From: a virus
Taxonomy: Duplodnaviria > Heunggongvirae > Uroviricota > Caudoviricetes
Length of the DNA stretch: 64,000 bases
Virus record (IMG/VR): IMGVR_UViG_3300031920_000341
Span: 144,267 to 208,266 of that record
Direction: 5' to 3' (one strand)
Shown here: one piece after another, positions 13,730-61,944 of the stretch
Position numbering within the stretch: position 1 is the first letter of the stretch
Layout: each line of letters begins with the position of its first letter
Notes under the pieces: model-generated
Database searches by the model: none
What the model was told of the DNA's origin: nothing
Seen by the model: only the letters and a program-made list of their open reading frames with translations
Position numbers and translations under genes: made by a program

Positions 13730-13765
13730 TACTTTTCCGTATGCAATTTTTTTGCTATATTTGTA
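13730..13765 (+). promoter_or_regulatory. bipartite promoter-like element, copy 1 (TACTTTTCCGTATGC-N11-TATATTTGTA)
   Basis: One of 8 copies of a 36-bp element with fixed 11-nt spacer; the downstream half matches the Bacteroidota -7 box TAnnTTTG. Confidence 0.55.
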
Positions 13766-13785
13766 CTATATTTAAAAGTAAAAAA

Positions 13786-14304
13786 ATGGAAACTTTAATA
13801 AAAAAAAGGATATTAGTTGATACCTTTACTTCTGTATTTTTAAAATCAGTATTAATTGCTGATAAAGTAGTTGGAATTACAGTAGAGGAAGATTCAGTTA
13901 AATTTATTGCGGATGGATTTCCTGGCGAGATAAAAAAACAAGAAGGCTCAGGTATAATTTATTTTGAAGTAATATATAAGGATTCTACTATTATAATTTG
14001 TTCGGCCGTTGAATATGAAACGATAAGACCATTTTATATAAATGATTATTCTGAATATATGGATAGGTATGAAATACTTAAATATATAAAAAGACATAAG
14101 AGTGAAAACATTAAAGATTATTTTATGGACTTACTTGAAAAAATGATGGAACATTACAGACAAATTATGGACGATACAGAAGTCTTTGAAAAGATGAACA
14201 AAGCACTTAATATGAGTCCATGTATTGTTCGTTTACCGGAATGCGATAAACTTGTACACAAAATTGGTGATAAATTAACCATTACCACTTATTATATGAA
14301 TTAA
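13786..14304 (+). CDS. hypothetical protein (start moved to METLIKK...)
   Basis: The ORF track starts at 13741, but that ATG lies inside the conserved promoter-like element 13730-13765; the first ATG downstream of it is 13786. Confidence 0.4.
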   Translation: METLIKKRILVDTFTSVFLKSVLIADKVVGITVEEDSVKFIADGFPGEIKKQEGSGIIYFEVIYKDSTIIICSAVEYETIRPFYINDYSEYMDRYEILKYIKRHKSENIKDYFMDLLEKMMEHYRQIMDDTEVFEKMNKALNMSPCIVRLPECDKLVHKIGDKLTITTYYMN

Positions 14305-14320
14305 AAAAAATCAATTATGA

Positions 14321-14959
14321 ATGCAAAAATTAATTCTTCGTAAATCGAAATTTTTATGGTTACTGGATCCAGGACATGGTGGTATCATTAATGGACAGTA
14401 TCAAACAGCAGGAAAAAGAGGTCCAGTTTGGCCAGATGGTCGACAATTATTTGAAGGCGAATTTAATCGTGAAATTGTTAAATTACTTGTTGAGAAATTA
14501 CAAAAAGCTGAAATAGATTTTATAAATCTAGTTCATACTGAACGTGATGTAGCATTAAAGACACGAACAAGAAAAGCCAATGAAATATATAAAACTGACA
14601 GAAGAGCAGTATATCTTTCAATTCATGGTAATGCCGGAGGTGGAACTGGATGGGAAGTTTGGACATCAAAAGGACAGACTAGATCTGATCTTTTGGCTAC
14701 TCGTTTCTTCAAAATAATGAATGATATGTTTCCTAACATGAGATTTAGGGCAGATAATAGTGATGGTGATCCCGATAAGGAAGCTAACTATTGGGTATTG
14801 AGAAAAACACATATGCCAGCTGTGCTGACAGAAAACTTTTTCATGGATACACTTAATCCCGATTGTGAAATTATGATGAGCAAAAAAGGGCAAGAAGCAA
14901 TAGCTGAGGCACATTTTTTAGCAATCATGAATATCGAGACATATGGTATAAATTTTTAA
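14321..14959 (+). CDS. N-acetylmuramoyl-L-alanine amidase (Amidase_3 family endolysin)
   Basis: LLDPGHGG...LSIHGNAGGG...AVLTENFFMD match the zinc-amidase (CwlV/AmiC-like) signature. Confidence 0.85.
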   Translation: MQKLILRKSKFLWLLDPGHGGIINGQYQTAGKRGPVWPDGRQLFEGEFNREIVKLLVEKLQKAEIDFINLVHTERDVALKTRTRKANEIYKTDRRAVYLSIHGNAGGGTGWEVWTSKGQTRSDLLATRFFKIMNDMFPNMRFRADNSDGDPDKEANYWVLRKTHMPAVLTENFFMDTLNPDCEIMMSKKGQEAIAEAHFLAIMNIETYGINF

Positions 14960-14969
14960 TTTTTAATGA

Positions 14970-15608
14970 ATGGATAAACAAGATATTTCGCTAAATATAA
15001 ATGATACAATTCAAGAATTAGCAATCAATTTCCAGAGAAAGGGCGAAAACTGGGAACGCGATTTAAATGAATTGTGCGTAATTTTAATGCCAAAATTACA
15101 ATATTTTATTTGGCGCTACATAAAAGATGAACATACAATTAATGATATTGTGAGTGATACGCTTTTAAAAATGATAAGTAAAATAGATACTTTCAATTAT
15201 TCTTTTAGATTCACAACATGGATATATCGTATTGCAACCAATTTAGCACTTGGCCATATCGATAAAACCAATAAGATAACTGAAATTGATATATCAACAG
15301 TTACAGATAGTATATACAACGAACCTAATTATACATTAGAGAACAATAAATTTGATTTTGATAAGTTGTATCAACTTACTATCGAAGCAATATTTAAAAT
15401 GCCAAATGATATTAATAAAAGTATCATAATCGAGAAGCATATTAATGATCTTAAAGGTTCTGAAATTGCTAATAAATTTGGTATAAATGAAAATACAGTT
15501 AAAACAAAACTTAGAGCGATGCGAAAACGTATACGCACTTATATTAAAGAAAATGATGCTGAACTTTACGGCAAAGTAAAGGAAATATTATACAAAAAAA
15601 TCGACTAA
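14970..15608 (+). CDS. RNA polymerase sigma factor, sigma-70/ECF-like
   Basis: Region 2-like FRFTTWIYRIATNLALGHIDK and region 4 HTH GSEIANKFGINENTVKTKLRAMRKRIRTYI. Confidence 0.75.
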   Translation: MDKQDISLNINDTIQELAINFQRKGENWERDLNELCVILMPKLQYFIWRYIKDEHTINDIVSDTLLKMISKIDTFNYSFRFTTWIYRIATNLALGHIDKTNKITEIDISTVTDSIYNEPNYTLENNKFDFDKLYQLTIEAIFKMPNDINKSIIIEKHINDLKGSEIANKFGINENTVKTKLRAMRKRIRTYIKENDAELYGKVKEILYKKID

Positions 15609-15609
15609 C

Positions 15610-16080
15610 GTGTTTTTAAACCCGATTACAATATTTAAAAAAACAAAAAGAATATTCAAAGAAATTTCATTATATTTTTTCTACAAGGAACAGAAACAAT
15701 TAATGGGTAAAAATGGTGATCTTTCTTTATATAATCTATTTAAGGATTATCTAGGTAATCTTTATATGGTTGTTAATCTTCAACCTGAGCTTAAGCTATA
15801 CAATAACGATGCAGACCTTGAGCGAGAAGAAAAAAAATATGTAGCAAACGAGGTATCAAAATTATTACCTATGTTTGAAAAATATGATACATATGAATTA
15901 ATTAGAATGAAACGTAAAAGATTTGATAGTGGTTTAAAATATGGCTATGGCATTGTTATCAAATATTTTTGGAAAGAAGTTGGTTTTTGGTGGTTACTAT
16001 GGTTAGCCATGTTTTATTCAGGACTTGGTTATGGTATCTATTACTTAATTACAACATATTTACTTAATCCTACATTATAA
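15610..16080 (+). CDS. membrane protein (holin candidate)
   Basis: C-terminal hydrophobic helices FWWLLWLAMFYSGLGYGIYYLITTYLL; located next to the endolysin region. Confidence 0.25.
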   Translation: MFLNPITIFKKTKRIFKEISLYFFYKEQKQLMGKNGDLSLYNLFKDYLGNLYMVVNLQPELKLYNNDADLEREEKKYVANEVSKLLPMFEKYDTYELIRMKRKRFDSGLKYGYGIVIKYFWKEVGFWWLLWLAMFYSGLGYGIYYLITTYLLNPTL

Positions 16081-16142
16081 GAGATTTGCATAAACCTATA
16101 TTGTTATTGTAGATAAATAAAATAGAAAAACAGTATAGTTTA

Positions 16143-16676
16143 ATGGCAACAGTAAATAATGTATGTGATTCCGCTAATGGTATTAAGAAATTAATAATGC
16201 TCGATGGGTGTTTCTCTATTCAATATAGGGAGAAAATACTTGCCGAGCTTTGTTGTTTAGACCTTTTGGCATATCCCTTAGATGGATTTGAAAGAAAATC
16301 AGAAAAGATAAATGCTGATTCTTCTATAATTATATTTGATAATGACTTTGATTTAAGTCCAACAGTTATTAATGATTATGTATATTCTGGTGCTATAATA
16401 TATGTACATTATCCAACATATACTACTGCTGGCGATTTAATCGATGATGCAAATAAAAATGTTATTATACGATTGGGTGATAGAACAACTACATTTGATA
16501 TACCAATTTATAATTTTTATTCACATTTATCTAATCCAATTACAAACGATAATTCAAAGTGGCTTAATAGTTTACAAATAATAAATCAAAATGGTTTTTA
16601 TGTTAATGTTGAGATACTTACTATAAAAATACCGAAAGATGGTGTTGATCTTACTGCAGCAGGTAGTGGGTGTTAA
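16143..16676 (+). CDS. hypothetical protein
   Basis: 177-aa ORF, same strand, tight spacing. Confidence 0.35.
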   Translation: MATVNNVCDSANGIKKLIMLDGCFSIQYREKILAELCCLDLLAYPLDGFERKSEKINADSSIIIFDNDFDLSPTVINDYVYSGAIIYVHYPTYTTAGDLIDDANKNVIIRLGDRTTTFDIPIYNFYSHLSNPITNDNSKWLNSLQIINQNGFYVNVEILTIKIPKDGVDLTAAGSGC

Positions 16677-16691
16677 AAAAATTTTTAAATA

Positions 16692-17087
16692 ATGAGCATT
16701 ACTAACAGTGCAACAAGAGCTATAGAAATAGTAAGAGATGTAGAATATAAACCAGAATGGATTTATGCAAATAGAACATTAGGAGCTGAGGTAGGAGCAA
16801 CAGCAAATGGTGCAGGGATGTATGATAAAGCTCCAATATATGCAATTCATGTTGTTGCTAATGGTTTGACAGCAGGAACACATTTTATTAGAATGTGGTT
16901 TTATGATCAAAGTGATGATAATTATGTTGATATGGATTCAGGTGGTTTTCTAGTTGGACACATATACCCAATATACTTACGCAAATTTACTATCGTGAAC
17001 GCGTCAGGGACGCCTGTAACGGACCAGGATGCTAATTATAGCATGATAGGTTATCAAGCCAAAAATATGCCTTACGAGCTAACATAA
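16692..17087 (+). CDS. hypothetical protein
   Basis: 131-aa ORF. Confidence 0.35.
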   Translation: MSITNSATRAIEIVRDVEYKPEWIYANRTLGAEVGATANGAGMYDKAPIYAIHVVANGLTAGTHFIRMWFYDQSDDNYVDMDSGGFLVGHIYPIYLRKFTIVNASGTPVTDQDANYSMIGYQAKNMPYELT

Positions 17088-17551
17088 TGCCAATCAGAAG
17101 ACCCATAGAAACTTTTAGAAACTTCCATCACCATTTACCTTACACTGGTAGGAACGATTACTTTGGATCTATTAATTCGAGTCCAGGGATGGGCGATGCA
17201 TTTTCAATACGACAACTTTCGCTTAAAGATGCCGCGCCCCCTGCAATAATGACAATGGATGAGTTTGATGTATTAGCTTATAATATTAGAACAAGTCTTG
17301 TTAAGGGTGAACGAATTAAAGCCGTACCAGTTACAGATAGAGAAGGTTCTGCAGTAAGCGGTAGAGTTTATGAAATAAAAATAGATTACGGCAAAAAGAA
17401 TATTCGTATATCCATGAGAACCGATGATATGAAAATAATTGAGATATATCCTGAAACAATATATCGTATTGATAGGGATACATTTGAAAATTTAAATTAT
17501 GTTCCAACCATAAATGAAACAGCAAATTATATAAAAAACATTAAATCGTAA
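17087..17551 (+). CDS. hypothetical protein
   Basis: 154-aa ORF, TAATG overlap with upstream gene. Confidence 0.35.
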   Translation: MPIRRPIETFRNFHHHLPYTGRNDYFGSINSSPGMGDAFSIRQLSLKDAAPPAIMTMDEFDVLAYNIRTSLVKGERIKAVPVTDREGSAVSGRVYEIKIDYGKKNIRISMRTDDMKIIEIYPETIYRIDRDTFENLNYVPTINETANYIKNIKS

Positions 17552-17597
17552 AACCTTTGTATATTTTTTCATAAAATATAAAAATAATACATTTATT

Positions 17598-18638
17598 ATG
17601 CCTAAAGATTTAATTCCTGCAGAGGAAGCAGGAAAGATTTTAGCTGAAAAGGAAGCTAATAATCAAGAAAATTTTCCAGATAAATCATCAAATAAACTTC
17701 CAACTGTGGAAGAATTACATGAGAAAGCTTTAAAGAATAGGGTTGACAAAGATAATAAGCTTAAACCACAAGAAACATCTGAAATACATGGTACTGCAGA
17801 TAATATGTGGAAAGGTATTGTAGTTGATCAAATGCCAACAAAAGGATTATTCTATCCTGATGATATACAAATAACAATTAGACCAGCAATGGTTGAAGAA
17901 ATTCGACATTGGTCGACAATGGATGAATTTGATCCAGTAAGTATTAATGAAAAGATTAATATGATTGTTGAGAAATGTGTTAGAATGCAGGACAATCAAC
18001 GATTAACACATGATTGGAGAGAAATTAAAGAGGTTGATAGACTTTGGCTTGTTATCAGAGTTTATGAATTATCATTCCCAAATAAAGAAAATGTACTTTA
18101 TCTTAAATTTGGTTGTAATCTTCAATGTAAAGGTGATGGTGATTATAAAGAAGATGTACCATTAACAAGTGATATGTTAAATATGTTTGAAGTTCCAGAA
18201 GAAGTAATGCAATATTATGATCCAGCAAGAAAATGTTTTATTGCACATTCTGATAAATTAAATAAGGATATAAAGTTTTATATGCCTTCAATTGGTGTAT
18301 CTCAACATATAAAAAACATAATACAAGAAGGAAGAACCAATAATAAACATGTTGATATTTCTTTTGCTAAAATTGCACCTTATTTATTTAATAAGTTTGC
18401 TGATATTAAAGAAGCAGGAGCATATGAAGAAAAACGTGCCGAATCATATCGTTGGGAAAAGAATGAACTTCTTTTTATTAATGGTATAGCTGATAAATTA
18501 GAAGCTGCGATTAACTTGAACATCAAAAAAGAATGCCCGAAATGTGGCGTAATACTTGAGATGCCATTGTTTTTTCGTGGAGGGTTTACAATCAAGAATT
18601 TTTTCGCTGTTTCAACTGGATTTAATGACCTTATATGA
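17598..18638 (+). CDS. hypothetical tail-module protein
   Basis: 346 aa with CPKCG zinc-ribbon-like motif near the C-terminus. Immediately upstream of an out-of-frame overlapping ORF and of the tape measure gene. Confidence 0.4.
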   Translation: MPKDLIPAEEAGKILAEKEANNQENFPDKSSNKLPTVEELHEKALKNRVDKDNKLKPQETSEIHGTADNMWKGIVVDQMPTKGLFYPDDIQITIRPAMVEEIRHWSTMDEFDPVSINEKINMIVEKCVRMQDNQRLTHDWREIKEVDRLWLVIRVYELSFPNKENVLYLKFGCNLQCKGDGDYKEDVPLTSDMLNMFEVPEEVMQYYDPARKCFIAHSDKLNKDIKFYMPSIGVSQHIKNIIQEGRTNNKHVDISFAKIAPYLFNKFADIKEAGAYEEKRAESYRWEKNELLFINGIADKLEAAINLNIKKECPKCGVILEMPLFFRGGFTIKNFFAVSTGFNDLI

Positions 18639-29724: not shown

Positions 29725-29760
29725 TACTTTTCTGTTTAATATATTATTCATATATTTGTA
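29725..29760 (+). promoter_or_regulatory. bipartite promoter-like element, copy 2 (TACTTTTCTGTTTAA-N11-TATATTTGTA)
   Basis: Same element, 28 nt upstream of ATG 29788. Confidence 0.55.
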
Positions 29761-29787: not shown

Positions 29788-30159
29788 ATGGAAAACATTT
29801 TTAGCGATGAGTTTAAAACTCTATTTACGCCATTTTTTAATCAATTATATGAAACACTACCACTCGCACGTGTTACATTTGAAAAAGAAGATGAGCATGG
29901 TATTATTGAATTTATATTACCTGGTTTTGAAAAAGACAATTTTTCTTTAACTTTACAAAATAACAGGAAATTAATTGTTGAATACAATAAACCAAATGAT
30001 TCTGAAAACGAATGGGATTTTTCATTCAAGAAAGTATATTCAATTAGTTTTGATATAGATTCTAAGAATGTTCGTGTTGGATTTGTTAATGGAATATTTT
30101 CTATTGAATTTAATGGTATTGATGCAGATATTATATCAGTAGACTTACCAATGGGTTAA
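29788..30159 (+). CDS. hypothetical protein
   Basis: Preceded by promoter-like element 29725-29760 and followed by bidirectional terminator 30164-30190. Confidence 0.4.
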   Translation: MENIFSDEFKTLFTPFFNQLYETLPLARVTFEKEDEHGIIEFILPGFEKDNFSLTLQNNRKLIVEYNKPNDSENEWDFSFKKVYSISFDIDSKNVRVGFVNGIFSIEFNGIDADIISVDLPMG

Positions 30160-32655: not shown

Positions 32656-32691
32656 TACTTTTCTGTTTCATTTAAATTGCGTTAATTTGCT
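32656..32691 (+). promoter_or_regulatory. bipartite promoter-like element, copy 3 (TACTTTTCTGTTTCA-N11-TTAATTTGCT)
   Basis: Same element upstream of ATG 32699. Confidence 0.5.
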
Positions 32692-32698: not shown

Positions 32699-32905
32699 AT
32701 GGAAAAAGGAATCCAATATATTAGCAGCCAACGTGGATATGATAAGAACATTAAAGTTAATGTGAAACATATTACAAATGATAAGATTGCCGTAGAATTT
32801 TTATCGGTAACTTCGTTTTGTTGGATAGGTTGGTATAAGTGGTATTTTAGAAATGAATTTGATAATGTATTTGAAACAACTATAGGTACAATTCCAGATA
32901 AATAA
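32699..32905 (+). CDS. hypothetical small protein
   Basis: First ATG after promoter-like element 32656-32691 (the ORF track's TTG start at 32687 lies inside the element). Confidence 0.35.
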   Translation: MEKGIQYISSQRGYDKNIKVNVKHITNDKIAVEFLSVTSFCWIGWYKWYFRNEFDNVFETTIGTIPDK

Positions 32906-33140: not shown

Positions 33141-33176
33141 TACTTTTCTGTTTCGAAATAAAAACATATATTTGCA
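33141..33176 (+). promoter_or_regulatory. bipartite promoter-like element, copy 4 (TACTTTTCTGTTTCG-N11-TATATTTGCA)
   Basis: Same element, directly abutting ATG 33177. Confidence 0.5.
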
Positions 33177-38496: not shown

Positions 38497-38661
38497 TAAA
38501 TTTTGAATATATAATTAAAATAATCCAGTTCAATGAGACGAACAAATATTTCTTTACGATTGCGCACTGCACGAATTCGTCCATTGGGATTAATTTTACG
38601 ATGTAGGTAATTCCCATACTTTTCCATTTCAATTTAATTTTGTATATTTGTAAAATAATTT

Positions 38662-38734
38662 GGGTTTGTCGTCCAATTGAATAGGATTCCAGATTACGGA
38701 TCTGGGGATACGGGTTTGAATCCTGTCAAGCTCA
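38662..38734 (+). tRNA. tRNA-Arg (anticodon ACG) with non-canonical D/T loops
   Basis: Manual fold: acceptor GGGTTTG/CAAGCTC (5 Watson-Crick + 2 GU), D stem GTCC/GGAT, anticodon stem CCAGA/TCTGG with loop TTACGGA, T stem ACGGG/CCTGT with loop TTTGAAT. D loop AATTGAATA has A19 and the T loop has U56 (covarying replacement of G19:C56). TATATTTGTA box lies 8 nt upstream. Confidence 0.45.
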
Positions 38735-40824: not shown

Positions 40825-41192
40825 CGTAGATTGCTGTAGTTTCACCTGTTATTGCACCAGGAAAGAAAAGGCAGTAAGGGATTTATAGAGATACCAAAGG
40901 TTATGCAAGCCACTCTTAGTAAGAAAGTAGTTCTAATCCCCTATAAGGGAGACAGCTTAAAAGCAGTGTTGCGAAAGTTATGTTAAGGCATAAATCACTG
41001 ATCTTGTTGAAACTATTACTTATGATTTAAAATAATATACATATATGTTTAGTAAATTAAAACTTAAAAATGTATTACATAGAACCTGAAGATCAAACAT
41101 CTATTTCTGCTTATATAATCTGGGAAGAATGTGAAAATTTTATAATAAGTGTTTATACAGTAGTGGATAAATAATAAAAATATCAATTTGTT

Positions 41193-44584: not shown

Positions 44585-44638
44585 TGGTGCTGACAATTCT
44601 TACTTTTATGTTTCAATTATATTTCTTATATTTGTATT

Positions 44639-45727
44639 ATGAAAAAAATAATTATTTTTGAATGCGATATTTGCAGAAATCAATATAGAGTTGAAAATCA
44701 TGATAGTATTGAAAAAGCAAAGATAGAGTGTGAAGCATGTGAAGCACGTGGATATGCTGATCCAAATCGTATTGATCATTATGTAATTAATCAAATAATA
44801 GATGGTGGTATTAGAATGACATTTTGTAATTTACCTTTTAGTGTTAATAAGCACCATCTAAGAGCTACATCATGGGCGGCCAGAGATCAATTTTTTAAAA
44901 ACACAGAAAATAAAATTATTCCAACAATAAATGATAATTATGGTGAAATGGTTTGTGCTGGTGGAAATGATAGTTTTATAGAAGCTATGTCTAATGTAGA
45001 ATTTTACAAAAGCAAAAAGGTTGTTGAATTTGGACCACACTTTTTAAGAATGGTTAGATATATGAGAAGCATTGGTTTACCTGCAAAATATTGGAATGGC
45101 GAAAGTGTTGTAATATATGATAAAGAACTTCCAACCAATGAAGAAGATTTTCTTCCACAAACAGAAGAACAGAAAGAAGAAGCAATTAGAAGTAAAACCA
45201 TGATAATTGTTGAACCTGTACTTAAACCTACAATAAAAGATTACAAAATACTTAAGGTAGACTTAGAAGAATTAGAAAAGTATAAAAAGGAAGGGTACAG
45301 TATATTTAAGCGAAGAGCAATATATTTTACCGATTATTCATATAGTGAAAAGGTACAATATGAAGAATTAGAAGGTATACTTAATAAATTTAGAAGACGT
45401 GGTAAAATAATCTTTGATAAGGATATAAAAATAACAAATTCACCACCATTCGATATGTCATTTCAAATATTATTTTTTGATTACGGCGGCGTAATGGGAG
45501 TTGGCGCAGATGATATGATATTTTCACATTGTAAACATCTTGTGCTTGATGCCAAAAAGAATCCACATAAGGATTATATCATAACAAGTGCATTTTCTAG
45601 CTTTGTTGGTTACATGAAAGAAGCAATGGAAGAATTTGGTTATTATACTGGAGATGATGTTCAAGAAAACATATATTTTGGAATTAATAATTATTTAAAG
45701 AAAAATAATTTATTTAAAGAAAAATAA
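44639..45727 (+). CDS. hypothetical protein with N-terminal Cys-rich zinc-finger-like motifs
   Basis: CDICRNQ...CEACEARG; C-terminal FFDYGGVMGVGADD weakly HAD-like. Confidence 0.35.
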   Translation: MKKIIIFECDICRNQYRVENHDSIEKAKIECEACEARGYADPNRIDHYVINQIIDGGIRMTFCNLPFSVNKHHLRATSWAARDQFFKNTENKIIPTINDNYGEMVCAGGNDSFIEAMSNVEFYKSKKVVEFGPHFLRMVRYMRSIGLPAKYWNGESVVIYDKELPTNEEDFLPQTEEQKEEAIRSKTMIIVEPVLKPTIKDYKILKVDLEELEKYKKEGYSIFKRRAIYFTDYSYSEKVQYEELEGILNKFRRRGKIIFDKDIKITNSPPFDMSFQILFFDYGGVMGVGADDMIFSHCKHLVLDAKKNPHKDYIITSAFSSFVGYMKEAMEEFGYYTGDDVQENIYFGINNYLKKNNLFKEK

Positions 45728-48418: not shown

Positions 48419-49369
48419 TTATTTACTATTATTGGATAGTTCTAACTCTTTTGCTAAAAAATACTTTCCTAATTCAATTTTTTCTTTAAGTGTAGCAGAT
48501 TTTAGTATTTCTTGTTTTTGTAGTTCAAGTTCTGTATTTAATTTTATTTGCTCTTGTTTTTTATTTTCCATTTCCAATAATAAATTAATAGTCTGTTCTA
48601 TTTTGGGATTTGCATTTAATGTATATGAAACACTGTCTACATGCATTCCAAGTGAATGTGGTACAAGATTACAATCACGCTTAGGATTTCCCTTTTTGTT
48701 TTTATCTAATGTATATATTGTTTTATTCGATTCAATAAAAGAATGAAATTGAAGTTTACCATTAATAAGTTGATCATTTAATAAACCTGTTATTATATCC
48801 ATTGTTTCTTGTTTTTTGTTTATAACATCAGATAATGATACGATTGGTGGCATTGAGTGTATAATATTTATTAATACTTTTTCTTGATGCTGTCGTATAT
48901 GTATTGCTTCGGTAAAATTCAATAATGTTTCTGGTGATGCTTTATCTAAATTATATGTAACTTTAGCATCCAATGATATAATTATACCATCTTGTGTTTT
49001 AAGTGGTAAACTTTTAAATTCATATGTGGTTGATTTTTGAAATGGAATAATATCATATAATCCAATATATGCTTGTGCTTTATTCCAAAATGTAATTGAA
49101 TCAATTTTTGAATAATCTTGATAGTGTCCTTTACCAATAAGGAATACATATCCTTCATTTGGTTGTGGATATTTCTTTTCTACTTTAACATGGAAATATA
49201 CTAGCATTAAAAACACTGATATAGCCACAAGTAATTTAACCAAAGTAAAACCTTTCTTACTTGCTGGTTCATTAAATCCATTTAGATTATAACGTTCATC
49301 TTTTATTGTTTTCATTTTTTTATTATTAAACATGTATATTATAAATTGAAAATTCAAATTTAGAAACAT
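48419..49369 (-). CDS. hypothetical membrane-anchored protein
   Basis: 316 aa, N-terminal hydrophobic anchor LVKLLVAISVFLMLVYF. Confidence 0.4.
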   Translation of the reverse strand: MFLNLNFQFIIYMFNNKKMKTIKDERYNLNGFNEPASKKGFTLVKLLVAISVFLMLVYFHVKVEKKYPQPNEGYVFLIGKGHYQDYSKIDSITFWNKAQAYIGLYDIIPFQKSTTYEFKSLPLKTQDGIIISLDAKVTYNLDKASPETLLNFTEAIHIRQHQEKVLINIIHSMPPIVSLSDVINKKQETMDIITGLLNDQLINGKLQFHSFIESNKTIYTLDKNKKGNPKRDCNLVPHSLGMHVDSVSYTLNANPKIEQTINLLLEMENKKQEQIKLNTELELQKQEILKSATLKEKIELGKYFLAKELELSNNSK

Positions 49370-49525
49370 CTGAAAGTAATTTATAAGGTGGCACTTGAGG
49401 TGTTGGAGATAATATTAATTCATTTACTCCACTACTAAAAGTATATGTAATATCCTCATAAAAAACATTTGAAATAATTTTTCTATTTTTTTCCATTTTT
49501 AATTATTATAAAACAAAGATACGAG

Positions 49526-50179
49526 ATGATTACGAAACAGAAAAGTAATATAAATAACAAAAAGCATTATTACTATATGTCTAAGATATTCCAGCTCCCA
49601 TTATTTGAAAGCTATGCGCCAAAAGTATTATTAATTGTAGATGTACAAAAACCATTTAAAGAATTCTTTCCATGTGAATATCTTAAAAAATTAAAATGGT
49701 ATGCTGGACAGTTTGAAACAGTATATCAAATCTGGGACGAAACTGAGGCAGAAGCACCTAGTTATCAATTTCATAATGAAGTACAAACAATAGTGAAACA
49801 ATACGGTGGAGACGTTGATGAATCTGATATGGAAAATATGACAGATGAATCAGCAGTAATTTTTAAACAAGAAGAATATGATTATAATACTAAGTTTGAT
49901 TTAAAAGATGGTGGTGCAATATATTATATTGGAAATGGCGGTGAAGGACCAGGTCATGAATGGTTTAGAGTATCAAAAGAATATATAGAATTTCTTAATG
50001 AATTAAAAAGACTTAATGCAGAAATCATATTGGTTGGCGGCGGTAAATTTGAATGTATATATGATGTTGAAATATCATTACTTGATGCTGATATAACTTT
50101 TAATTATAACGATCAATTAGTATACAATGCGAATAGTGGTTGTGATCAAAATCAGGATGAAGAAATTATTCAGGATTAA
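49526..50179 (+). CDS. hypothetical protein
   Basis: 217 aa. Confidence 0.35.
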   Translation: MITKQKSNINNKKHYYYMSKIFQLPLFESYAPKVLLIVDVQKPFKEFFPCEYLKKLKWYAGQFETVYQIWDETEAEAPSYQFHNEVQTIVKQYGGDVDESDMENMTDESAVIFKQEEYDYNTKFDLKDGGAIYYIGNGGEGPGHEWFRVSKEYIEFLNELKRLNAEIILVGGGKFECIYDVEISLLDADITFNYNDQLVYNANSGCDQNQDEEIIQD

Positions 50180-50868: not shown

Positions 50869-50982
50869 TTTAATTTTATATAAAACTTTAAATTAGTTTT
50901 AATGCAAAGATAATTAATTTATTTGATAAGGAAAAGTAAACTTTAATAAAATTTTTGATATAATGATAAAACATTTCAACTT

Positions 50983-52080
50983 ATGCAAAAAGAATATACA
51001 GGAGATATTATTATCGGGATCAGTGGTAAATTATGTTCAGGAAAAGACACGGTAGCAGATTATTTGATTAAACGTATGGGTCATATAAATTTCACAAAGG
51101 AATCATTTGCACTAAATCTTAAAAAGATTATAGCAACAACATGTGGTACTGATTTAGAAACACAAATGACACAAGAAGGTAAAAATCAAGTTTGTCCAAT
51201 TTTCAATAAAACATATGGTACAATGCAGCAAGAAATTGGCGGTACCGTATTAAGAAGGTATGATGAAGATTATTGGTTAAAGTCTTTATTCGCAAAGCAT
51301 AAGACTGGTCAGAGTTGGATAATTTCTGATGTAAGATATCCTAATGAAGCAAACTACATTAAAAGTATAGGTGGAATATTAATTAGAGTTGAGGGTGATC
51401 CTGGTAAAATTAGAGCAAGTTCTACACGAGATATGACACATTCTTCTGAAATATCACTTGATAATTATGATTTCTTTGATATAACATGGCAGAACGAACC
51501 GCCAATCGGTAATTTATCTAAATTAGTTGGTGAGGTTGATAAATTAATACAACGTCGTCAACCTACTTATAAACCTAAATTTATGTTAAAGGCTATTGTC
51601 GCAATAGATGAAGCTAATGGTATCGGCAAAGATAATAAATTATTGGCTAAATTACCCAATGATATGAAACATTTTGTTAATTTAACAAAAGGCCATACTG
51701 TAATAATGGGCAGGAAAACCCATGAATCAATTGGATTTCCATTAAGTGAGCGGGTTAATATAATTTTAACACGAGATAAAAAATTCAAAGCAGATGGTTG
51801 TTTAGTCGTACATACGATTAAAGATGCTTTAACATTGGCTAGAAAATATCCAGTTGATTGTTATGTTATGGGCGGAGCAGAAATATATGAACAGATGCTA
51901 CCGTACTGCAATGAAATAGAAGCAACGGTAATACATTCAGTATTTGAAGCTGATGTATTTTTCCCACAACTTAATATATTAGAATGGGAATTAATAGGTG
52001 CAGCAGGTAACGAAGTTGATGAAAGAAATAAGTGGCCACATACGTTTGAAACATACGAAAGAATTAGTAGCTCATTTTAA
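50983..52080 (+). CDS. bifunctional deoxynucleoside monophosphate kinase (T4 gp1-like) / dihydrofolate reductase fusion
   Basis: N-terminal half: P-loop GISGKLCSGKDTVADYL, YWLKSLFA and IISDVRYPNEANYIK resemble T4 dNMP kinase (SGVKRSGKDTTADFI, YWVKLFA, IVPDTRQDHEMD). C-terminal half: classic DHFR IVAIDEANGIGKDNKLLAKLPNDMKHF...VIMGRKTHESIGFPLSERVNIILTRD. Single uninterrupted 365-aa frame. Confidence 0.75.
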   Translation: MQKEYTGDIIIGISGKLCSGKDTVADYLIKRMGHINFTKESFALNLKKIIATTCGTDLETQMTQEGKNQVCPIFNKTYGTMQQEIGGTVLRRYDEDYWLKSLFAKHKTGQSWIISDVRYPNEANYIKSIGGILIRVEGDPGKIRASSTRDMTHSSEISLDNYDFFDITWQNEPPIGNLSKLVGEVDKLIQRRQPTYKPKFMLKAIVAIDEANGIGKDNKLLAKLPNDMKHFVNLTKGHTVIMGRKTHESIGFPLSERVNIILTRDKKFKADGCLVVHTIKDALTLARKYPVDCYVMGGAEIYEQMLPYCNEIEATVIHSVFEADVFFPQLNILEWELIGAAGNEVDERNKWPHTFETYERISSSF

Positions 52081-52082: not shown

Positions 52083-52118
52083 TACTTTTTGATTTCATAA
52101 TTTTTCCGTATATTCGCG
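52083..52118 (+). promoter_or_regulatory. bipartite promoter-like element, copy 5 (TACTTTTTGATTTCA-N11-TATATTCGCG)
   Basis: Most divergent copy; upstream of ATG 52146. Confidence 0.45.
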
Positions 52119-52145: not shown

Positions 52146-52874
52146 ATGATTTCGAAAATACTAAAAATAGTAATATTTCTGGGATTTTTTATAATAAATC
52201 CAGGGCCCAAAATTAATGATGCTCAAGTTGTGGACAACTGGCATCCTCCTAAAGAAACTGTTAAACAAGAAATTGTTAAACCAGAGGTAATTGAAACTAA
52301 ATTTGTATTCAATATACCAAAGAAAAAATCACATCAAGCATTTTTACGATCGATGGGATTTAGAGAATCAACAAATCGATATGACACGATAAACAAATAC
52401 GGTTATCTTGGAAAGTATCAATTTTCAGAAAGAACACTTAAAGGGCTCGGCATAAACACCGAGCCTCAACTCTTTTTAAAGGATAGAGACTTACAAGAGT
52501 ATGCAATGCATAAGTATTTGAAACTCAATAGAAAGATACTCAGTAATATTATAAATCGATATAATGATACAATACTTTATATTAATGAGCGAGAGATACC
52601 AGATACATTAATTTTAGTTACACATGAACTCATTAATGATACATTATTGATAAGTGATACTGCTTATGCATATACTACAAAGATAATAGTAGATACTCTT
52701 TATTTAACTGAAAGCGGGATTCTTGCCGCTGCACACTTAGGTGGCGCAGGTAATGTTAAGAAGTTTTTTAAAGAACTTGATAATAATGATAAATATAATC
52801 CTAAAGATAAATTTGGTACTAGTCTAACTGATTATATGTTAAGGTTTTCTGGATATTCATTAGCACTACGATAA
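52146..52874 (+). CDS. hypothetical secreted/membrane protein, lytic-transglycosylase-like motif
   Basis: N-terminal hydrophobic segment; FRESTNRYDTINKYGYLGKYQF resembles the GH23 E-S...G-L-M-Q catalytic region. Preceded by promoter-like element 52083-52118. Confidence 0.3.
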   Translation: MISKILKIVIFLGFFIINPGPKINDAQVVDNWHPPKETVKQEIVKPEVIETKFVFNIPKKKSHQAFLRSMGFRESTNRYDTINKYGYLGKYQFSERTLKGLGINTEPQLFLKDRDLQEYAMHKYLKLNRKILSNIINRYNDTILYINEREIPDTLILVTHELINDTLLISDTAYAYTTKIIVDTLYLTESGILAAAHLGGAGNVKKFFKELDNNDKYNPKDKFGTSLTDYMLRFSGYSLALR

Positions 52875-56759: not shown

Positions 56760-56765
56760 TAAACA

Positions 56766-57426: not shown

Positions 57427-57437
57427 AATTTAAAGAT

Positions 57438-57728
57438 ATGGTACAATTAGACGCAAAAAAAGAAAATGGGAATATAATAATAACTGAAGATAGTTTTGAT
57501 CATTTACTAAATTGCTTAGACAATCAGAAGTTTATTCCTGAGTATGACAAACAAACCGAGGATCATAAAACAATGTTCCAGGATTATATTGATGATTTCA
57601 ATATTCAATGTAGAAACCTATTACATAATGGTGGATACTATCCAATAGCAAATCAACTTAAATTATTTGAAGATGAATCAGATAAAGCATTTGATGCATT
57701 ATTTGATGCAGTACAAAAAGAACTTTAA
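57438..57728 (+). CDS. hypothetical protein
   Basis: 96 aa. Confidence 0.35.
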   Translation: MVQLDAKKENGNIIITEDSFDHLLNCLDNQKFIPEYDKQTEDHKTMFQDYIDDFNIQCRNLLHNGGYYPIANQLKLFEDESDKAFDALFDAVQKEL

Positions 57729-57739
57729 TATTTACAGAT

Positions 57740-58045
57740 ATGGAATTTTATAGATACGAATGGATAGGGTTAGAATCAGCAAGAGATTCACTTCCTATTA
57801 TTAAGTTAAAACTAAGGATATTTAAATTACTTAGAGAGACTGAAAAGGGTTATTGGATTGATTTGGAATATAAAGATAGATGGATTTCTAAAACTTCAAC
57901 AAAACGGTATGCTTACCCTACCAAAAAAGAAGCATTAAATAATTTTATAATAAGAACAAAACGTAGATTGCAGTTTGTTGAAGCTACAATACATGGTTGT
58001 AAACAATCACTACGTTTAGCAGATATTGAATTAAATAAAATTTAA
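57740..58045 (+). CDS. hypothetical protein
   Basis: 101 aa. Confidence 0.35.
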   Translation: MEFYRYEWIGLESARDSLPIIKLKLRIFKLLRETEKGYWIDLEYKDRWISKTSTKRYAYPTKKEALNNFIIRTKRRLQFVEATIHGCKQSLRLADIELNKI

Positions 58046-58046
58046 T

Positions 58047-58082
58047 GACTTTTCTGTTTCATTTGCTTTTAGTATATTTGTA
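58047..58082 (+). promoter_or_regulatory. bipartite promoter-like element, copy 6 (GACTTTTCTGTTTCA-N11-TATATTTGTA)
   Basis: Upstream of ATG 58100. Confidence 0.55.
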
Positions 58083-58099
58083 TCGTAATTAAAATATTA

Positions 58100-58267
58100 T
58101 GACAAAAACAGGAAAAAGACGTAAAAAAGATAAGCGTCTCAATAAAATCACAGTATCTGGCTATTCTATTCACTGGTCTAGTGAATGGTCAATACGTAGT
58201 AAACTTGCCAAACATTATAAAAGACTTCAAAGTTTATTGTTTAATCAAAAAGAGGAAGGATATTAAT
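58100..58267 (+). CDS. hypothetical small basic protein
   Basis: 55-aa ORF (MTKTGKRRKKDKRLNKITVSGYSIHW...), first ATG 18 nt after promoter-like element 58047-58082; not in the ORF track (<60 aa). Confidence 0.35.
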
Positions 58268-58477
58268 ATGTTTAGTTCAGGAAGTCATATTCATTCACTT
58301 ATATCAATGACATATATGTTTGATGATATTAGAGAAAAGAATAAAGAGAAGTGTGATGAAATCGTAAACGAATATTGGGCAATAAGTAAATGGCCACGTA
58401 AGAAAAAGAAAAGACGAAGAAAAGAATTAAAAATAGATTATTCTATATTTTCTTGGGATTTATTTGGAAATTATTAA
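58268..58477 (+). CDS. hypothetical protein (start adjusted to MFSSGSHIH)
   Basis: ORF-track entry 58181-58477 overlaps the 55-aa ORF; first in-frame ATG after the latter's stop is 58268; basic C-terminus KKKKRRRK. Confidence 0.3.
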   Translation: MFSSGSHIHSLISMTYMFDDIREKNKEKCDEIVNEYWAISKWPRKKKKRRRKELKIDYSIFSWDLFGNY

Positions 58478-58519
58478 TTATAAAAATCTAATGATAAATA
58501 ATTAAAATAATTATGTACT

Positions 58520-58900
58520 ATGTCAGAAAATTTTAAAGTACCAATGTTTGAAGAATTTGATATGAAACCAATTGAAAATTTGATGGATGATGAAATTGAA
58601 AAGTTAAACAAAATAAAAGATACAGAACCAGAAACAGATATTGAAATAGAATCAGAAACCGATATCGATGAACCAGAAACCGAGTCTAATATAGAAGCAG
58701 ATATCGATGCAGCAATGCAATTATATCTTGATCTTAGAGATAGACTAGGCGAAATACAAGATACAATTGAAAATTCACCAAAAGAAGCATGGGTTGCATT
58801 ACATAATCATATGACAGAAATGTATAATGAAACACCTAGTGATCAATTCGATGAATTAGATGAATTGGTACTTCAGTTTTTAACTAAAAAAATTGGTTAA
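58520..58900 (+). CDS. hypothetical acidic protein
   Basis: 126 aa with TEPETDIEIESETDIDEPETESNIEADID acidic repeat. Confidence 0.35.
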   Translation: MSENFKVPMFEEFDMKPIENLMDDEIEKLNKIKDTEPETDIEIESETDIDEPETESNIEADIDAAMQLYLDLRDRLGEIQDTIENSPKEAWVALHNHMTEMYNETPSDQFDELDELVLQFLTKKIG

Positions 58901-59279
58901 TATGTATAGTTTTCAAATCCCATTGTTTGAATCATGGGAAGATGTTAATGATAAAATAAAAGACATACAAGATAACCTATCAAGTTATGTCCCACCTTTT
59001 ACTTATGCTGATTATACAACTGATGCCGATAAAAAGAATGATGGTTCAGGCGATTATAGCGTATGGATAGAATACAATGAAGCACCTCTCGATACCATTA
59101 CAAAACTTAATGATTCAGAATTTTATAATAAAATGATAGAACATTTTAATGTTTGGGTAACTGAAAATAAATTTGAACTGTACGATATTGAAATATTGAG
59201 TACACATAATTCAATATCATATTCAATCACTATGGCAACCGGTACACGAAAACTTAAAAGAGCAACAGGTAGAAGATAA
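58893..59279 (+). CDS. hypothetical protein
   Basis: 128 aa. Confidence 0.35.
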   Translation: MVNMYSFQIPLFESWEDVNDKIKDIQDNLSSYVPPFTYADYTTDADKKNDGSGDYSVWIEYNEAPLDTITKLNDSEFYNKMIEHFNVWVTENKFELYDIEILSTHNSISYSITMATGTRKLKRATGRR

Positions 59280-59304
59280 TTTAATTCAATAAATATTTAA
59301 TATT

Positions 59305-59610
59305 ATGACAGAAGACCAAAAAGATGCTATTATAGATATAGAAAAAATAAATGAAAAATTATACGATAAGTATGAAAAAGATAATAACATAGATAATTTA
59401 CCTATTGTTAGTATTACGATTGCAGATGTATATTTTTTTATTGCAATATCTATATCCGATGAATTTGACGGACAAGAAATAAAAATTTTTAATTCTGAAA
59501 ATAATGATAGAATATATTATGAAAAATCCAATACATATGAAACATTCTATAAGTTAATTAAAAGAAAATTTTTAGATATTAAAAATGAAATTAATAATGT
59601 AACGTTGTAA
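59305..59610 (+). CDS. hypothetical protein
   Basis: 101 aa. Confidence 0.35.
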   Translation: MTEDQKDAIIDIEKINEKLYDKYEKDNNIDNLPIVSITIADVYFFIAISISDEFDGQEIKIFNSENNDRIYYEKSNTYETFYKLIKRKFLDIKNEINNVTL

Positions 59611-59622
59611 AATATTAATTTT

Positions 59623-59658
59623 TACTTTTCTGTTTCAAAATAAAGTAGTATGTTTGCA
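59623..59658 (+). promoter_or_regulatory. bipartite promoter-like element, copy 7 (TACTTTTCTGTTTCA-N11-TATGTTTGCA)
   Basis: Upstream of micro-ORF 59767 and the tRNA cluster. Confidence 0.5.
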
Positions 59659-59766
59659 TCATAATTAATTAACTAATAAAATAAAAAGAAAAAAGTAAAA
59701 CTTTTTAGAATATATAAATATAATTATAACTCGCTGCAAATAGCAGCAACGAAAATTTAACTAAAG

Positions 59767-59880
59767 ATGAAACAAATTTTAAACATACAAGTAACGAAAG
59801 CAACTAAAAGAACACCCGATTTTAATTATGAAGGTGATCCAAGTTGTAATACCCGTGGTAAAAAATCTGTTTGCATGTAA
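59767..59880 (+). CDS. hypothetical micro-protein (37 aa)
   Basis: MKQILNIQVTKATKRTPDFNYEGDPSCNTRGKKSVCM; lies between promoter-like element 59623-59658 and strong terminator 59904-59934; could instead be a non-coding leader. Confidence 0.2.
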   Translation: MKQILNIQVTKATKRTPDFNYEGDPSCNTRGKKSVCM

Positions 59881-59903
59881 ACAATGTTTAACTTAACAGG
59901 ACT

Positions 59904-59934
59904 AAGCCTCGGGATTCAATCTCGAGGCTTTTTT
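59904..59934 (+). terminator. strong intrinsic terminator upstream of tRNA cluster
   Basis: AAGCCTCGGGA-TTCAA-TCTCGAGGCTT followed by TTTTTTC; 11-bp stem including one GU. Confidence 0.8.
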
Positions 59935-59946
59935 CATTTATAATAT

Positions 59947-60023
59947 CGAGGTATTGGGGAGCCAGGCCACCCCGCTTGCTTTGGGAGCAAGAGAACTCGT
60001 AAGTTCGAATCTTACTACCTCGA
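59947..60023 (+). tRNA. tRNA-Pro (anticodon TGG)
   Basis: Perfect acceptor CGAGGTA/TACCTCG, D arm GGGG-(10 nt)-CCCC, anticodon stem CTTGC/GCAAG with loop TTTGGGA, 7-nt variable region, T arm GTAAG-TTCGAAT-CTTAC. Confidence 0.7.
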
Positions 60024-60064
60024 CTTAATAATTAAAACGATCTTTGACGTCTTGAAAGAAAAAC

Positions 60065-60136
60065 GCCGGTGTAGCTCAGTGGTCGAGCGGAACGCTGTTA
60101 ACGTTAGGGTCGGGAGTTCGAATCTCTCCACCGGCG
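60065..60136 (+). tRNA. tRNA-Asn (anticodon GTT)
   Basis: Perfect acceptor GCCGGTG/CACCGGC, D arm GCTC-AGTGGTC-GAGC, anticodon loop CTGTTAA, T arm GGGAG-TTCGAAT-CTCTC. Confidence 0.8.
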
Positions 60137-60151
60137 CAATACAATTTAAAT

Positions 60152-60234
60152 GCCTCCTTGGCTCAGTGGTCGACAGCGCCTGCCTTGTAAGCAGGATTCT
60201 TAGGAACGCGTAGGTTCGAATCCTACAGGAGGCT
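60152..60234 (+). tRNA. type-II (long variable arm) tRNA with anticodon TGT (nominally Thr; Ser-like body)
   Basis: Perfect acceptor GCCTCCT/AGGAGGC, Ser-like D arm GCT-CAGTGGTCGAC-AGC, perfect anticodon stem CCTGC/GCAGG with loop CTTGTAA, 14-nt variable arm ATTCTTAGGAACGC, T arm GTAGG-TTCGAAT-CCTAC, discriminator U. Confidence 0.6.
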
Positions 60235-60442
60235 CACAAACCTTTAGTGTAGATTGATCGTCTTGCTATTGGGGCAATCTTTAGGGGTAGGAGACAACAG
60301 TATTGAATTCAGTTACTGAACGTATGGATTTCTGGTAAAACAAGAATGACAAAATTATGGACAGTACCGAGATTCACTTGATTTGGGAAGGAATCAGTAC
60401 AGTGTAAGTTTAAGGCTTACGTAGATTGCCAGCGCTAAAAAT

Positions 60443-60561
60443 GAAGGGGTAGCATTAGCTGGTTATGTTCAGGGACGTCTGATCACCCGGCTGGAAAGCA
60501 ACGCGAGTAGTACGCTTGCGCTTCTACGGAAGTGATGTTGGTTCGAGTCCGGCTCCCTTCA
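60443..60561 (+). ncRNA. 119-nt tRNA-like RNA with expanded central domain
   Basis: Acceptor GAAGGGG/TCCCTTC (extendable to 8 bp), D arm GCAT-TAGCTGGTT-ATGT, canonical T arm GTTGG-TTCGAGT-CCGGC. Between D and T arms lie ~67 nt forming at least two extra hairpins (GCAACGCG-AGUAGUA-CGCUUGC and CUUC-UACG-GAAG tetraloop); no standard 7-nt anticodon loop. Packed 5 nt upstream of tRNA-Lys. Confidence 0.4.
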
Positions 60562-60566
60562 CAAAT

Positions 60567-60640
60567 AGGCCCGTAGCTCAGTTGGTCAGAGCACCTGACT
60601 TTTAATCAGGGCGTCGAGGATTCGAATTCCTCCGGGCCTA
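60567..60640 (+). tRNA. tRNA-Lys (anticodon TTT)
   Basis: Perfect acceptor AGGCCCG/CGGGCCT, D arm GCTC-AGTTGGTCA-GAGC, anticodon stem CCTGA/TCAGG with loop CTTTTAA, T arm GAGGA-TTCGAAT-TCCTC. Confidence 0.85.
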
Positions 60641-60713
60641 CATGTTTTTATTTGTAAATCAGGTTCGATTATATTTTATTCGGCATAATTTAGATATATA
60701 AAAATAAAAGCAT

Positions 60714-61571
60714 ATGACATATACTGAAATATCTAAATTAGTAAAAAATGGTATAGAATACAATGATTTAGCTAATAAATTAAATATATCAATTGATGCA
60801 TTGTATAGTAGACTAAATAGACATGGTATTAAAAAACCAAAACAAAAAACTACAATAGATAAAATATGTTTAAATTGCGGTAAAAAATTTACGGTTAAAA
60901 TAAGTAGTGATAAAAAATATAATCATAAATTTTGCAATAAATCATGTTCTGCTACATATAATAATAAAAAAAGAGGTGCGCGATCAAAAGAAACAAAAGA
61001 AAAGATATCAAATTCATTAGCAAAGAATAATAAAATAATAAAAATATGTTTAAATTGCAGTAATGAATTTTTAACAAGAAATCATAAAAGAAAATTTTGT
61101 TCACGTACATGTTCAGATAAAGGAAGTAAAAAATTTGGTTGGATTAATATGCATAAGACAATGACATTTCAAAAATGGTCTGATATTAATAAAAAGGCAT
61201 ATGCTGAAGGTAGAAATTATGTAGCAGGAGGAACAACGAAATGGTATGATTATAAGAATATTAGAGTACAAGGAACTTATGAATTAAGAACATGTTATCT
61301 TTTAGATGAAATGAAAAGAATTTTTGTAATAAATGATTGGGAATATACAAATGATAGATTTAAATATTTAGATGTAGACAATAAGCAAAGAACATATTTA
61401 GTTGATTTTAAAATTTTTAATACAGATGGAACTTTTTATTATTTAGAAATAAAAGGTTATGAAAAAGATAATGATAAACTAAAGTGGCAAGCAGTACGTA
61501 ATAAAGGATATGAATTAATTGTTTGGTTTAATAAAGATATAATAAAAAATGAGAAAAAATATTTAAAATAA
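60714..61571 (+). CDS. zinc-ribbon protein with PD-(D/E)XK-like motif (homing-endonuclease-like), downstream of tRNA cluster
   Basis: Two CxxC...C(x)C zinc-ribbon units (CLNCGKKF...CNKSCS; CLNCSNEF...CSRTCSD) and C-terminal YLVDFKIFNTDGTFYYLEIKG resembling D...E.K; same architecture as 28437-29192. Confidence 0.35.
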   Translation: MTYTEISKLVKNGIEYNDLANKLNISIDALYSRLNRHGIKKPKQKTTIDKICLNCGKKFTVKISSDKKYNHKFCNKSCSATYNNKKRGARSKETKEKISNSLAKNNKIIKICLNCSNEFLTRNHKRKFCSRTCSDKGSKKFGWINMHKTMTFQKWSDINKKAYAEGRNYVAGGTTKWYDYKNIRVQGTYELRTCYLLDEMKRIFVINDWEYTNDRFKYLDVDNKQRTYLVDFKIFNTDGTFYYLEIKGYEKDNDKLKWQAVRNKGYELIVWFNKDIIKNEKKYLK

Positions 61572-61908
61572 AATCGTTCATTGTGCCCAGTGGTTGGGAA
61601 CGGGGCTGTCACCCTCGTAAAATTAACGGATCGTAACCGTTATGGACGGCAACATCAACGAAGATAGAGCAGAGACTCTTGACCCATCGTTCTGACTGGA
61701 CGGTGGGAACAAGTACATGTCGTGTGTATGATTGTGATAAGTTGTTATTTTTGATAAATAATAAGGGTTAATATATTATACTTTAAATATAAAAATCTGG
61801 TTTAGGGTTTAATATATTGCTCATTAAATTGTAAGTCGGTACCTGGCGTGCGTTGTTGCCGTCGACCTTCCGTTGTAGTTCATAGTCCTTCCCAGCAACG
61901 GGAGGTGG

Positions 61909-61944
61909 TACTTTTCGGTTTCATTTATAAATTGTATATTTGTA
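61909..61944 (+). promoter_or_regulatory. bipartite promoter-like element, copy 8 (TACTTTTCGGTTTCA-N11-TATATTTGTA)
   Basis: Upstream of micro-ORF 61972, at the 3' edge of a GC-rich structured island. Confidence 0.55.

Follow-up and report, generated by a model that had tools for sequence, protein, structure and literature searches.

A two-part motif in an uncultured jumbo phage: a likely promoter type that joins a Bacteroidota -7 box to a phage-specific upstream box

Which RNA polymerase, with or without a phage factor, would read a promoter that pairs a host-type downstream element with an upstream element of the phage's own? The question is raised by a 36-bp two-part motif repeated along 64,000 nucleotides of tailed-phage DNA (Caudoviricetes; positions 144,267 to 208,266 of IMG/VR record IMGVR_UViG_3300031920_000341; this whole stretch is termed here the window), the source of which is an uncultured jumbo phage of ~208 kb. 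The motif consists of an upstream half, ACTTTTCnGTTTCA, and a downstream half, TATATTTG, and an initial annotation of this DNA had listed eight copies and suspected a dedicated factor, such as a phage-encoded extracytoplasmic function (ECF)-type sigma factor, of recognizing them. On the evidence of its anatomy, position, orientation, fixed geometry and conservation in relatives, we conclude that the motif is almost certainly a promoter type of this giant phage's own.

Scanning both strands with a position weight matrix (PWM) yields 12 copies in the window, ten on the plus strand (at 13730, 29725, 32656, 33141, 38617, 44601, 52083, 58047, 59623 and 61909) and two on the minus strand (at 49512 and 50903). 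All eight copies listed at first are present at their coordinates, but four (38617, 44601, 49512 and 50903) had been missed, and the two on the minus strand overturn the claim that every copy lies on the plus strand. When scored leave-one-out, the copies reach 19.2-37.8 bits versus 4.8 bits for the best other position (~128,000 positions), so the family is sharply bounded, with no marginal or intragenic members. A mismatch search with the initial consensus also returns eight matches, a set different from the eight listed, and dinucleotide shuffles return 0; the listed copies carry 1, 1, 1, 2, 2, 4, 4 and 6 mismatches to that consensus, those at 13730, 32656 and 52083 being the degenerate ones (4-6 mismatches).

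The geometry of the motif is strict. The two halves are separated by exactly 11 nt in all 12 copies, as had been claimed, and all 12 are intergenic, each aimed at the gene or tRNA that follows it. As the genes ahead of the two minus-strand copies are themselves on the minus strand, the rule is one of shared orientation between copy and downstream gene (12/12). The initial annotation had held that copies inside genes or on both strands would speak against a promoter: none is intragenic, and both strands are used, but always in step with the genes. Pairwise identity across the copies falls from 83% and 81% in the two halves to 43% in the spacer and 33% in the 5' flank, and all 12 spacers differ; conservation is thus confined to the two halves, which points to constraint on the boxes and not to recent duplication.

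The anatomy of the downstream half leads to Bacteroidota. The -7 element of F. johnsoniae shows invariant bases at T-12, A-11, T-8, T-7, T-6 and G-5, and transcription begins 4-5 nt further down; the -33 element of this species is weak and barely visible, and in Flavobacteriia a good -7 box alone seems to be sufficient (PMC6847099). We numbered the motif by the F. johnsoniae scheme. The downstream half coincides with the Bacteroidota sigma-A -7 element (TAHHTTTG/TAnnTTTG), bearing out the initial assignment: ten of the window copies match it exactly, with the same invariant positions as in F. johnsoniae, and the other two are 1-2 positions off. The upstream half spans -38 to -24, with ACTTTTC at -37 to -31 and GTTTC at -29 to -25, and the predicted +1 is the third base past the 36-mer. 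Host -33 and -7 elements are usually described as 19-21 nt apart, and a TTTG at about that distance upstream of the -7 box is not found in the motif: the site of the host -33 TTTG holds TTTT/C, positions -35 to -31 reading TTTTC. The start site predicted from position is a purine in 9/12 window copies, lies a median of 22 nt from the first ATG in a tight distribution (window and relatives combined) and, at one copy, falls 7 nt ahead of a tRNA-Arg gene, all of which is consistent with the promoter-like character proposed initially.

Conservation in relatives extends this picture. Two relatives with terminases 74-75% identical carry the motif right after the terminase stop, in the same place as copy 13730 of the window, as TACTTTTTAATATCA-N11-TATATTTGTA in L001 and as CACTTTTCGGTTCCG-N11-TATACTTGTG in L081, which is higher in G+C; in relatives with terminase identity of <=55%, the post-terminase motif was not found. 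When metagenome contigs were scanned for the exact pattern, 87 stretches came back, ~22 of them short fragments from a few samples with 2-17 copies each, the extreme being L089 with 17 copies in 6.2 kb, nearly all on the same strand. The search for more copies that the initial annotation had recommended thus added, beyond the 12 that the PWM finds in the window, ~86 distinct copies in relatives' fragments, where they precede small open reading frames (ORFs) and follow the consensus yACTTTTCnGTTTCr-N10-G-TATATTTGTA-TCATAAT. Within the 36 positions the conservation among relatives is inflated by the pattern-based retrieval, but the terminal TCATAAT was no part of the search pattern, and its conservation therefore does not stem from the way in which copies were retrieved; it places C-1/A+1 at the predicted start. 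The offset from ACTTTT to TAHHTTTG is 25 in 92/92 cases (variants of +/-1 were looked for, and none was found), and some relatives keep both boxes yet have a G+C content of 41-47%. The relatives hold 169 occurrences of TAHHTTTG, of which 92 are the exact -7 boxes of motif copies and ~79 would be expected by composition (our own estimate from base composition); the motif accounts for practically all TAHHTTTG above chance.

The arrangement of copies in relatives is more elaborate than that in the window. L156 (7916-9801 and 10677-11056), L113 and L089 contain back-to-back divergent pairs and tandem 77-bp promoter repeats, each repeat including the first codons of the same gene. In four mosaic pairs, all from relatives and none from the window, one flank is common and the other is not, the break falling at the motif, which suggests recombination between promoter copies, as in the PeSL cassettes (early promoters coupled to stem-loops) of T4-type phages. 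A GC hairpin adjoins the ACTTTT tract at 12/96 copies versus 4.5% of control positions, a weak association of terminator and promoter that amounts to enrichment but not to a rule.

Is the upstream box borrowed from host promoters? Searching 185,579 species-representative genomes (GTDB, one per species) with the same pattern returned 29 stretches, of which 28 are single hits, 11 of them in Bacteroidota, a phylum rich in -7 boxes, and several inside long ORFs. The remaining one is a phage-like contig (L182; CAYOHQ010000023.1, 17.5 kb, 32% G+C) with four motif copies; it is binned in a metagenome-assembled genome of 'Thioalkalispiraceae' (Gammaproteobacteria) and is most likely a mis-binned phage contig. 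That contig aside, no bacterial genome among the 185,579 has more than one copy. The single, scattered hits rule against an origin in host promoters, and this lack of recurrent use marks the upstream box as specific to this phage lineage. Nor do phage collections hold a record of the motif: exact-pattern scans of IMG/VR did not find it, and Megablast of 20 kb of the window against the INPHARED phages gave no match. A scan for E. coli-type sigma-70 promoters showed no enrichment (132 found versus 155 expected, and 127 versus 128).

From this anatomy we infer where transcription starts, which polymerase and sigma factor are used, that the timing is early and what the upstream box does. We favor, with a probability of roughly 0.55, a strong early-type promoter that is initiated by the host sigma-A holoenzyme and has an added phage-specific box around -31. 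The motif would then be the main promoter class of the phage lineage: host RNA polymerase with a Bacteroidota sigma-A would read the downstream half as its -7 element and begin transcription ~3 nt past the 36-mer, and the upstream half would sit in place of the weak host -33 element as a lineage-specific addition, either strengthening the promoters or giving phage-specific control. The class would drive genes needed before phage protein synthesis, namely small-gene arrays, tRNAs, several nucleotide-metabolism operons and the operon of the ECF-type sigma factor, which would then probably serve a different promoter class.

Because the -7 half is the host's primary-sigma element and makes up nearly all above-chance TAHHTTTG, initiation by host sigma-A is the simplest interpretation. 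In addition, copy 13730 stands ahead of the phage sigma gene, and the intergenic gaps, of 16 and 10 nt, leave no place for another promoter, so that first expression of the sigma gene must come from the host holoenzyme. Among studied phages that encode their own sigma factor, early promoters are of host type, and those read by the phage sigma factor differ from the host consensus and stand ahead of late genes (PMC8948821); for SPO1, too, host-type early promoters and dissimilar phage-sigma promoters are described (PMC13401047). An extended consensus does not by itself call for a special reader, as that of T4 early promoters exceeds the host elements without a dedicated factor (PMC2988021).

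Several observations weigh against initiation by the host holoenzyme alone. The upstream box is invariant over ~13 bp with zero spacing variation, the G of the host -33 TTTG is missing in ~98/98 copies, and the box is not recurrent in any of the 185,579 species-representative genomes, whereas one that host polymerase favored by itself would be expected in some host promoters. The missing G, the invariance, the rigidity and the absence from hosts fit a phage-encoded reader at least as well. By analogy with T4, moreover, the tRNAs and nucleotide-metabolism operons served here would belong to the middle genes, and the window covers 64 kb of a 208-kb genome, elsewhere in which canonical early promoters may lie.

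These same features (invariance, missing G, rigid spacing and absence from host genomes) keep alive the option of a phage reader. In this possible, though clearly less probable, alternative, a phage DNA-binding protein would read the upstream box (-38 to -24) and host sigma-A the -7 box, making the class activator-dependent or repressor-controlled; the protein would replace the contact of sigma region 4 with -33, as MotA-AsiA does at T4 middle promoters, or would later shut the class off. Equally tentative is the version in which the box is a docking site for a phage factor that redirects the primary-sigma holoenzyme and evolved, in a clade of uncultured jumbo phages of Bacteroidota, independently of T4 MotA/AsiA. 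The resemblance in form is close: at T4 middle promoters a box 12 +/- 1 bp upstream of the -10 replaces the -35 element, and such promoters also serve tRNAs and nucleotide-metabolism genes (PMC2988021). An upstream box that is asymmetric as well as invariant, that stands a rigid 11 bp from the -7 box and that does not recur in bacterial genomes would fit a dedicated reader. Against such a reader, Pfam and PHROG scans of ~40 window proteins, most of which match nothing and which come from 64 of the 208 kb, gave no match to MotA, AsiA or another regulator; no separate canonical host promoter class that could express the factor first was seen in the window or in relatives' fragments; and a good -7 box is apparently sufficient by itself in Flavobacteriia (PMC6847099).

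Far less probable is the idea that all 36 bp form the cognate promoter of the phage's own sigma factor, which would autoregulate through copy 13730. The gene itself (14970-15608, plus strand) is genuine: it matches Pfam Sigma70_r2 and r4_2, the PHROG sigma family and NCBIfam ECF families, and its product matches the SigW structure 5wuq (E = 7e-13), making it a typical group-4 (ECF-type) factor with regions 2 and 4 only. Autoregulation from a promoter ahead of the factor's own operon is common among ECF sigma factors, and copy 13730 does head the operon of the sigma gene, a position equally expected for an early promoter read by the host. Motif and sigma factor also co-occur in the window phage and in L081, and bipartite motifs with fixed spacing are typical of alternative sigma factors, e.g., 7-11 gp47 (PMC8948821). 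Yet the -7 half does not differ from the element read by the primary sigma factor, no sigma factor can start its own expression, and many distant relatives without the motif have homologous sigma genes near TerL. Promoters of ECF factors typically have an AAC-containing -35 and a CGT-like -10, 16-17 nt apart, and the sense strand of the motif consensus contains neither. The sigma factor named in the initial annotation is therefore real but a poor candidate for the reader, lacking its AAC and CGT hallmarks in the motif and lying downstream of copy 13730; a separate motif ahead of structural genes, GATATATAA, makes a better candidate target.

That second promoter-like motif, (G/C)ATATA(T/A)A(A/T), is a single element on the plus strand at 10992, 28414, 39546, 50957, 60693 and 307, that is, 18-35 nt ahead of the start codons at 11019, 28437, 39573, 50983, 60714 and perhaps 360. 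It often comes directly after a terminator hairpin, precedes genes of the structural region, a dNMP kinase-DHFR gene and an HNH gene, and is syntenically conserved in L001 (~630) and L081 (~190). It resembles T4 late TATAAATA and is a candidate, better than the 36-bp motif, for the target of the ECF-type sigma factor; GATATATA also flanks a hairpin after TerL in distant relatives L016-L030.

Least probable of all, to the point that we give it little weight, is that the motif is not primarily a promoter and is instead a repeated cassette for recombination or mobility, the T-tract of a terminator or a signal acting at the RNA level, e.g., for processing: the mosaic flanks that break at the motif, the tandem 77-bp repeats and the PeSL-like excess of hairpins (PMC2839356) speak for it, but the hairpin is present at just 12% of copies, the two halves have no complementarity, orientation always follows the downstream gene at a tight distance to the ATG, the exact -7 box is left unexplained, and recombination at repeats is a consequence of repeated promoters and no alternative to them.

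With host sigma-A initiation as the preferred reading, the copies can be followed along the window. The first (13730-13765, plus strand, 20.4 bits leave-one-out) starts 4 nt past the stop codon of the large terminase gene (11818-13725), whose product is a distant relative of the terminases of Sphingomonas phage PAU, Tenacibaculum phage PTm1 and Prevotella Lak phages. It has the syntenic counterparts in L001 and L081 described above, its predicted +1 lies near 13768, and it heads an operon of g172, an amidase gene (14321-14959) and the ECF-type sigma gene. As this copy overlaps the ATG at 13741, the start of g172 shifts to 13786, in line with the initial annotation and with a gene call made independently on a Logan contig from this phage. 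The next (29725-29760, plus strand, 33.8 bits), directly preceded by an AT-rich hairpin, heads a monocistronic Hsp20-like gene (29788-30159), and the third (32656-32691, plus strand, 28.6 bits), which has the variant -7 box TTAATTTG, heads a small ORF with its start at 32699.

Two copies stand so close to their genes that the predicted +1 is on, or within 2 nt of, the ATG, and leaderless or near-leaderless mRNAs are probable for both. Copy 33141-33176 (plus strand, 34.1 bits) is directly followed by the ATG (33177) of a 189-aa gene, and copy 44601-44636 (plus strand, 35.5 bits), one of those absent from the initial list, lies between a tRNA-Cys gene and a 362-aa gene, with its predicted +1 at the A of the ATG at 44639.

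The class also appears to serve tRNAs, though not where this had been proposed. Copy 38617-38652 (plus strand, 37.8 bits), missed initially, is a clear tRNA promoter, its predicted +1 (38655) standing 7 nt ahead of tRNA-Arg(ACG) at 38662. The copy initially taken as the leader of the tRNA cluster (59623-59658, plus strand, 32.7 bits) heads a 37-aa ORF (59767-59880), which is followed by a strong intrinsic terminator (59904-59930) and then by tRNA-Pro at 59947; with ORF and terminator in between, this copy is only loosely a tRNA leader. From its sequence, the 59767-59930 interval could encode a small protein or a short RNA unit, and the tRNA cluster after 59947 may rely on read-through or on TTTATAAT just upstream of 59947.

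Both minus-strand copies were additions to the initial list. Copy 49512-49547 (33.5 bits) heads a 56-aa ORF (ATG 49496) and an SPFH-domain gene (48419-49369), and the more degenerate copy 50903-50938 (27.2 bits leave-one-out, and 23.1 bits by PWM while still outside the training set) heads ORFs of 68 and 170 aa (ATG 50868), all on the minus strand. On the plus strand, the most degenerate copy (52083-52118, 19.2 bits, -7 box TATATTCG) heads a gene at 52146 and a long operon with DHH-like and ThiI-like members; copy 58047-58082 (32.1 bits) heads a series of small ORFs of no known function (58099-59610); and copy 61909-61944 (36.9 bits), with a GC hairpin (61887-61905) directly upstream, heads small ORFs at 61972 and 62176.

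The copies are unevenly distributed along the window, which has a G+C content of 29.8%. Positions 1-29.7 kb hold large structural-type genes and a single copy; the region from 29.7 to 62 kb holds the remaining 11, together with ten tRNAs, many small genes of no known function and genes for thymidylate synthase, Dam methylase, dCMP deaminase and radical-SAM, ThiI-like and HNH proteins. Among the neighbors are a 365-aa dNMP kinase-DHFR fusion protein (50983-52080) and an HNH endonuclease-like gene (60714-61571) within the second tRNA cluster. The genes headed by the motif are chiefly small unknowns plus tRNAs, as the gene scans bear out for the regulon first described: for most genes behind the motif, whether in the window or in relatives, Pfam and PHROG scans return no family, so the timing of expression cannot be read from function. 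A Shine-Dalgarno-like 4-mer precedes just 1/69 window genes of at least 80 aa, and leaders are A-rich, strongly so and G-poor from -10 to -17. Initiation at A-rich sites without a Shine-Dalgarno sequence is the Bacteroidota style (PMC6847099), and judging by sequence these leaders fit a Bacteroidota host, in agreement with the -7 box.

Other repeats share the window with the motif. A third family, consisting of a hairpin followed by CTAACGTTTAGTATATGATT, occurs at 62455-62486, 62780-62811, 63143-63174 and 63363-63394, each time before a small ORF, and may be a further promoter class. The related TTTAGTAT stands after the terminase stop in relatives L006-L015. Non-coding stretches lie beside tRNA genes at 60236-60566 (44% G+C), 61651-61908 (39% G+C) and 40826-41060, the first two being richer in G+C than the rest of the window; none of the three contains an ORF or gave an Rfam or ARAGORN match. 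The 3' end of 60236-60566 resembles the T-arm and acceptor of a tRNA (GGTTCGAGTCCGGCTCCCTTCA), with a matching GAAGGGG ~150 nt upstream, and could mark an interrupted or atypical tRNA-like gene.

Cumulatively, the copies provide a precise promoter map for an uncultured ~208-kb jumbo phage, comprising 12 predicted transcription units over 64 kb, and with it corrections to several start codons and the two probable leaderless mRNAs. The motif is a compact and very well conserved promoter module that could serve strong expression in Bacteroidota. The upstream promoter region is poorly understood in Bacteroidota, and the systematic departure from the -33 element, at a rigid distance, makes the motif well suited to studying how that region is read, be it by sigma-A or by a phage factor; a new kind of biology would be at hand only if a dedicated phage reader of the upstream box were found.

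How does the motif compare with known promoter systems? With the sigma-ABfr promoters of Bacteroidota (-33 TTTG / -7 TAnnTTTG) it shares a near-perfect -7 element, a T-rich stretch at -35 to -32, AT-rich positions near -18 and -28 and short leaders without a Shine-Dalgarno sequence, and it differs from them in its TTTT/C in place of TTTG, in the extra invariant GTTTC at -29 to -25, in its rigid spacing and in a combination of elements that recurs in no species-representative bacterial genome. The promoters of phiEco32 gp36, 7-11 gp47 and SPO1 gp28 depart from the host consensus and stand before middle or late genes, whereas this motif includes the host -7 box and is found ahead of small genes, tRNAs and metabolic genes. 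Its closest analogues are probably the T4 early ('uber') promoters, which likewise exist in many strong host-sigma copies with an extended consensus, before small early genes and without a phage factor (PMC2988021), but which match every host element well, whereas the phage motif departs systematically from the -33. In form only, the motif is like the T4 middle promoters, a host downstream element combined with a phage box, here 11 bp from the -7, that replaces the -35/-33; this box, however, is unrelated to the MotA box (a/t)(a/t)(a/t)TGCTTtA and has no +/-1 spacing tolerance, and no MotA/AsiA homologue was detected. In relatives, the likeness would be to the PeSL cassettes of T4-type phages, in which repeated early-promoter cassettes flank single small ORFs (PMC2839356) and of whose recombination between copies the relatives show possible signs; the physical coupling of early promoter to terminator stem-loop that defines those cassettes is not a feature of the motif, which has a stem-loop at ~12% of its copies and, in the window, is dispersed with spacers that all differ.

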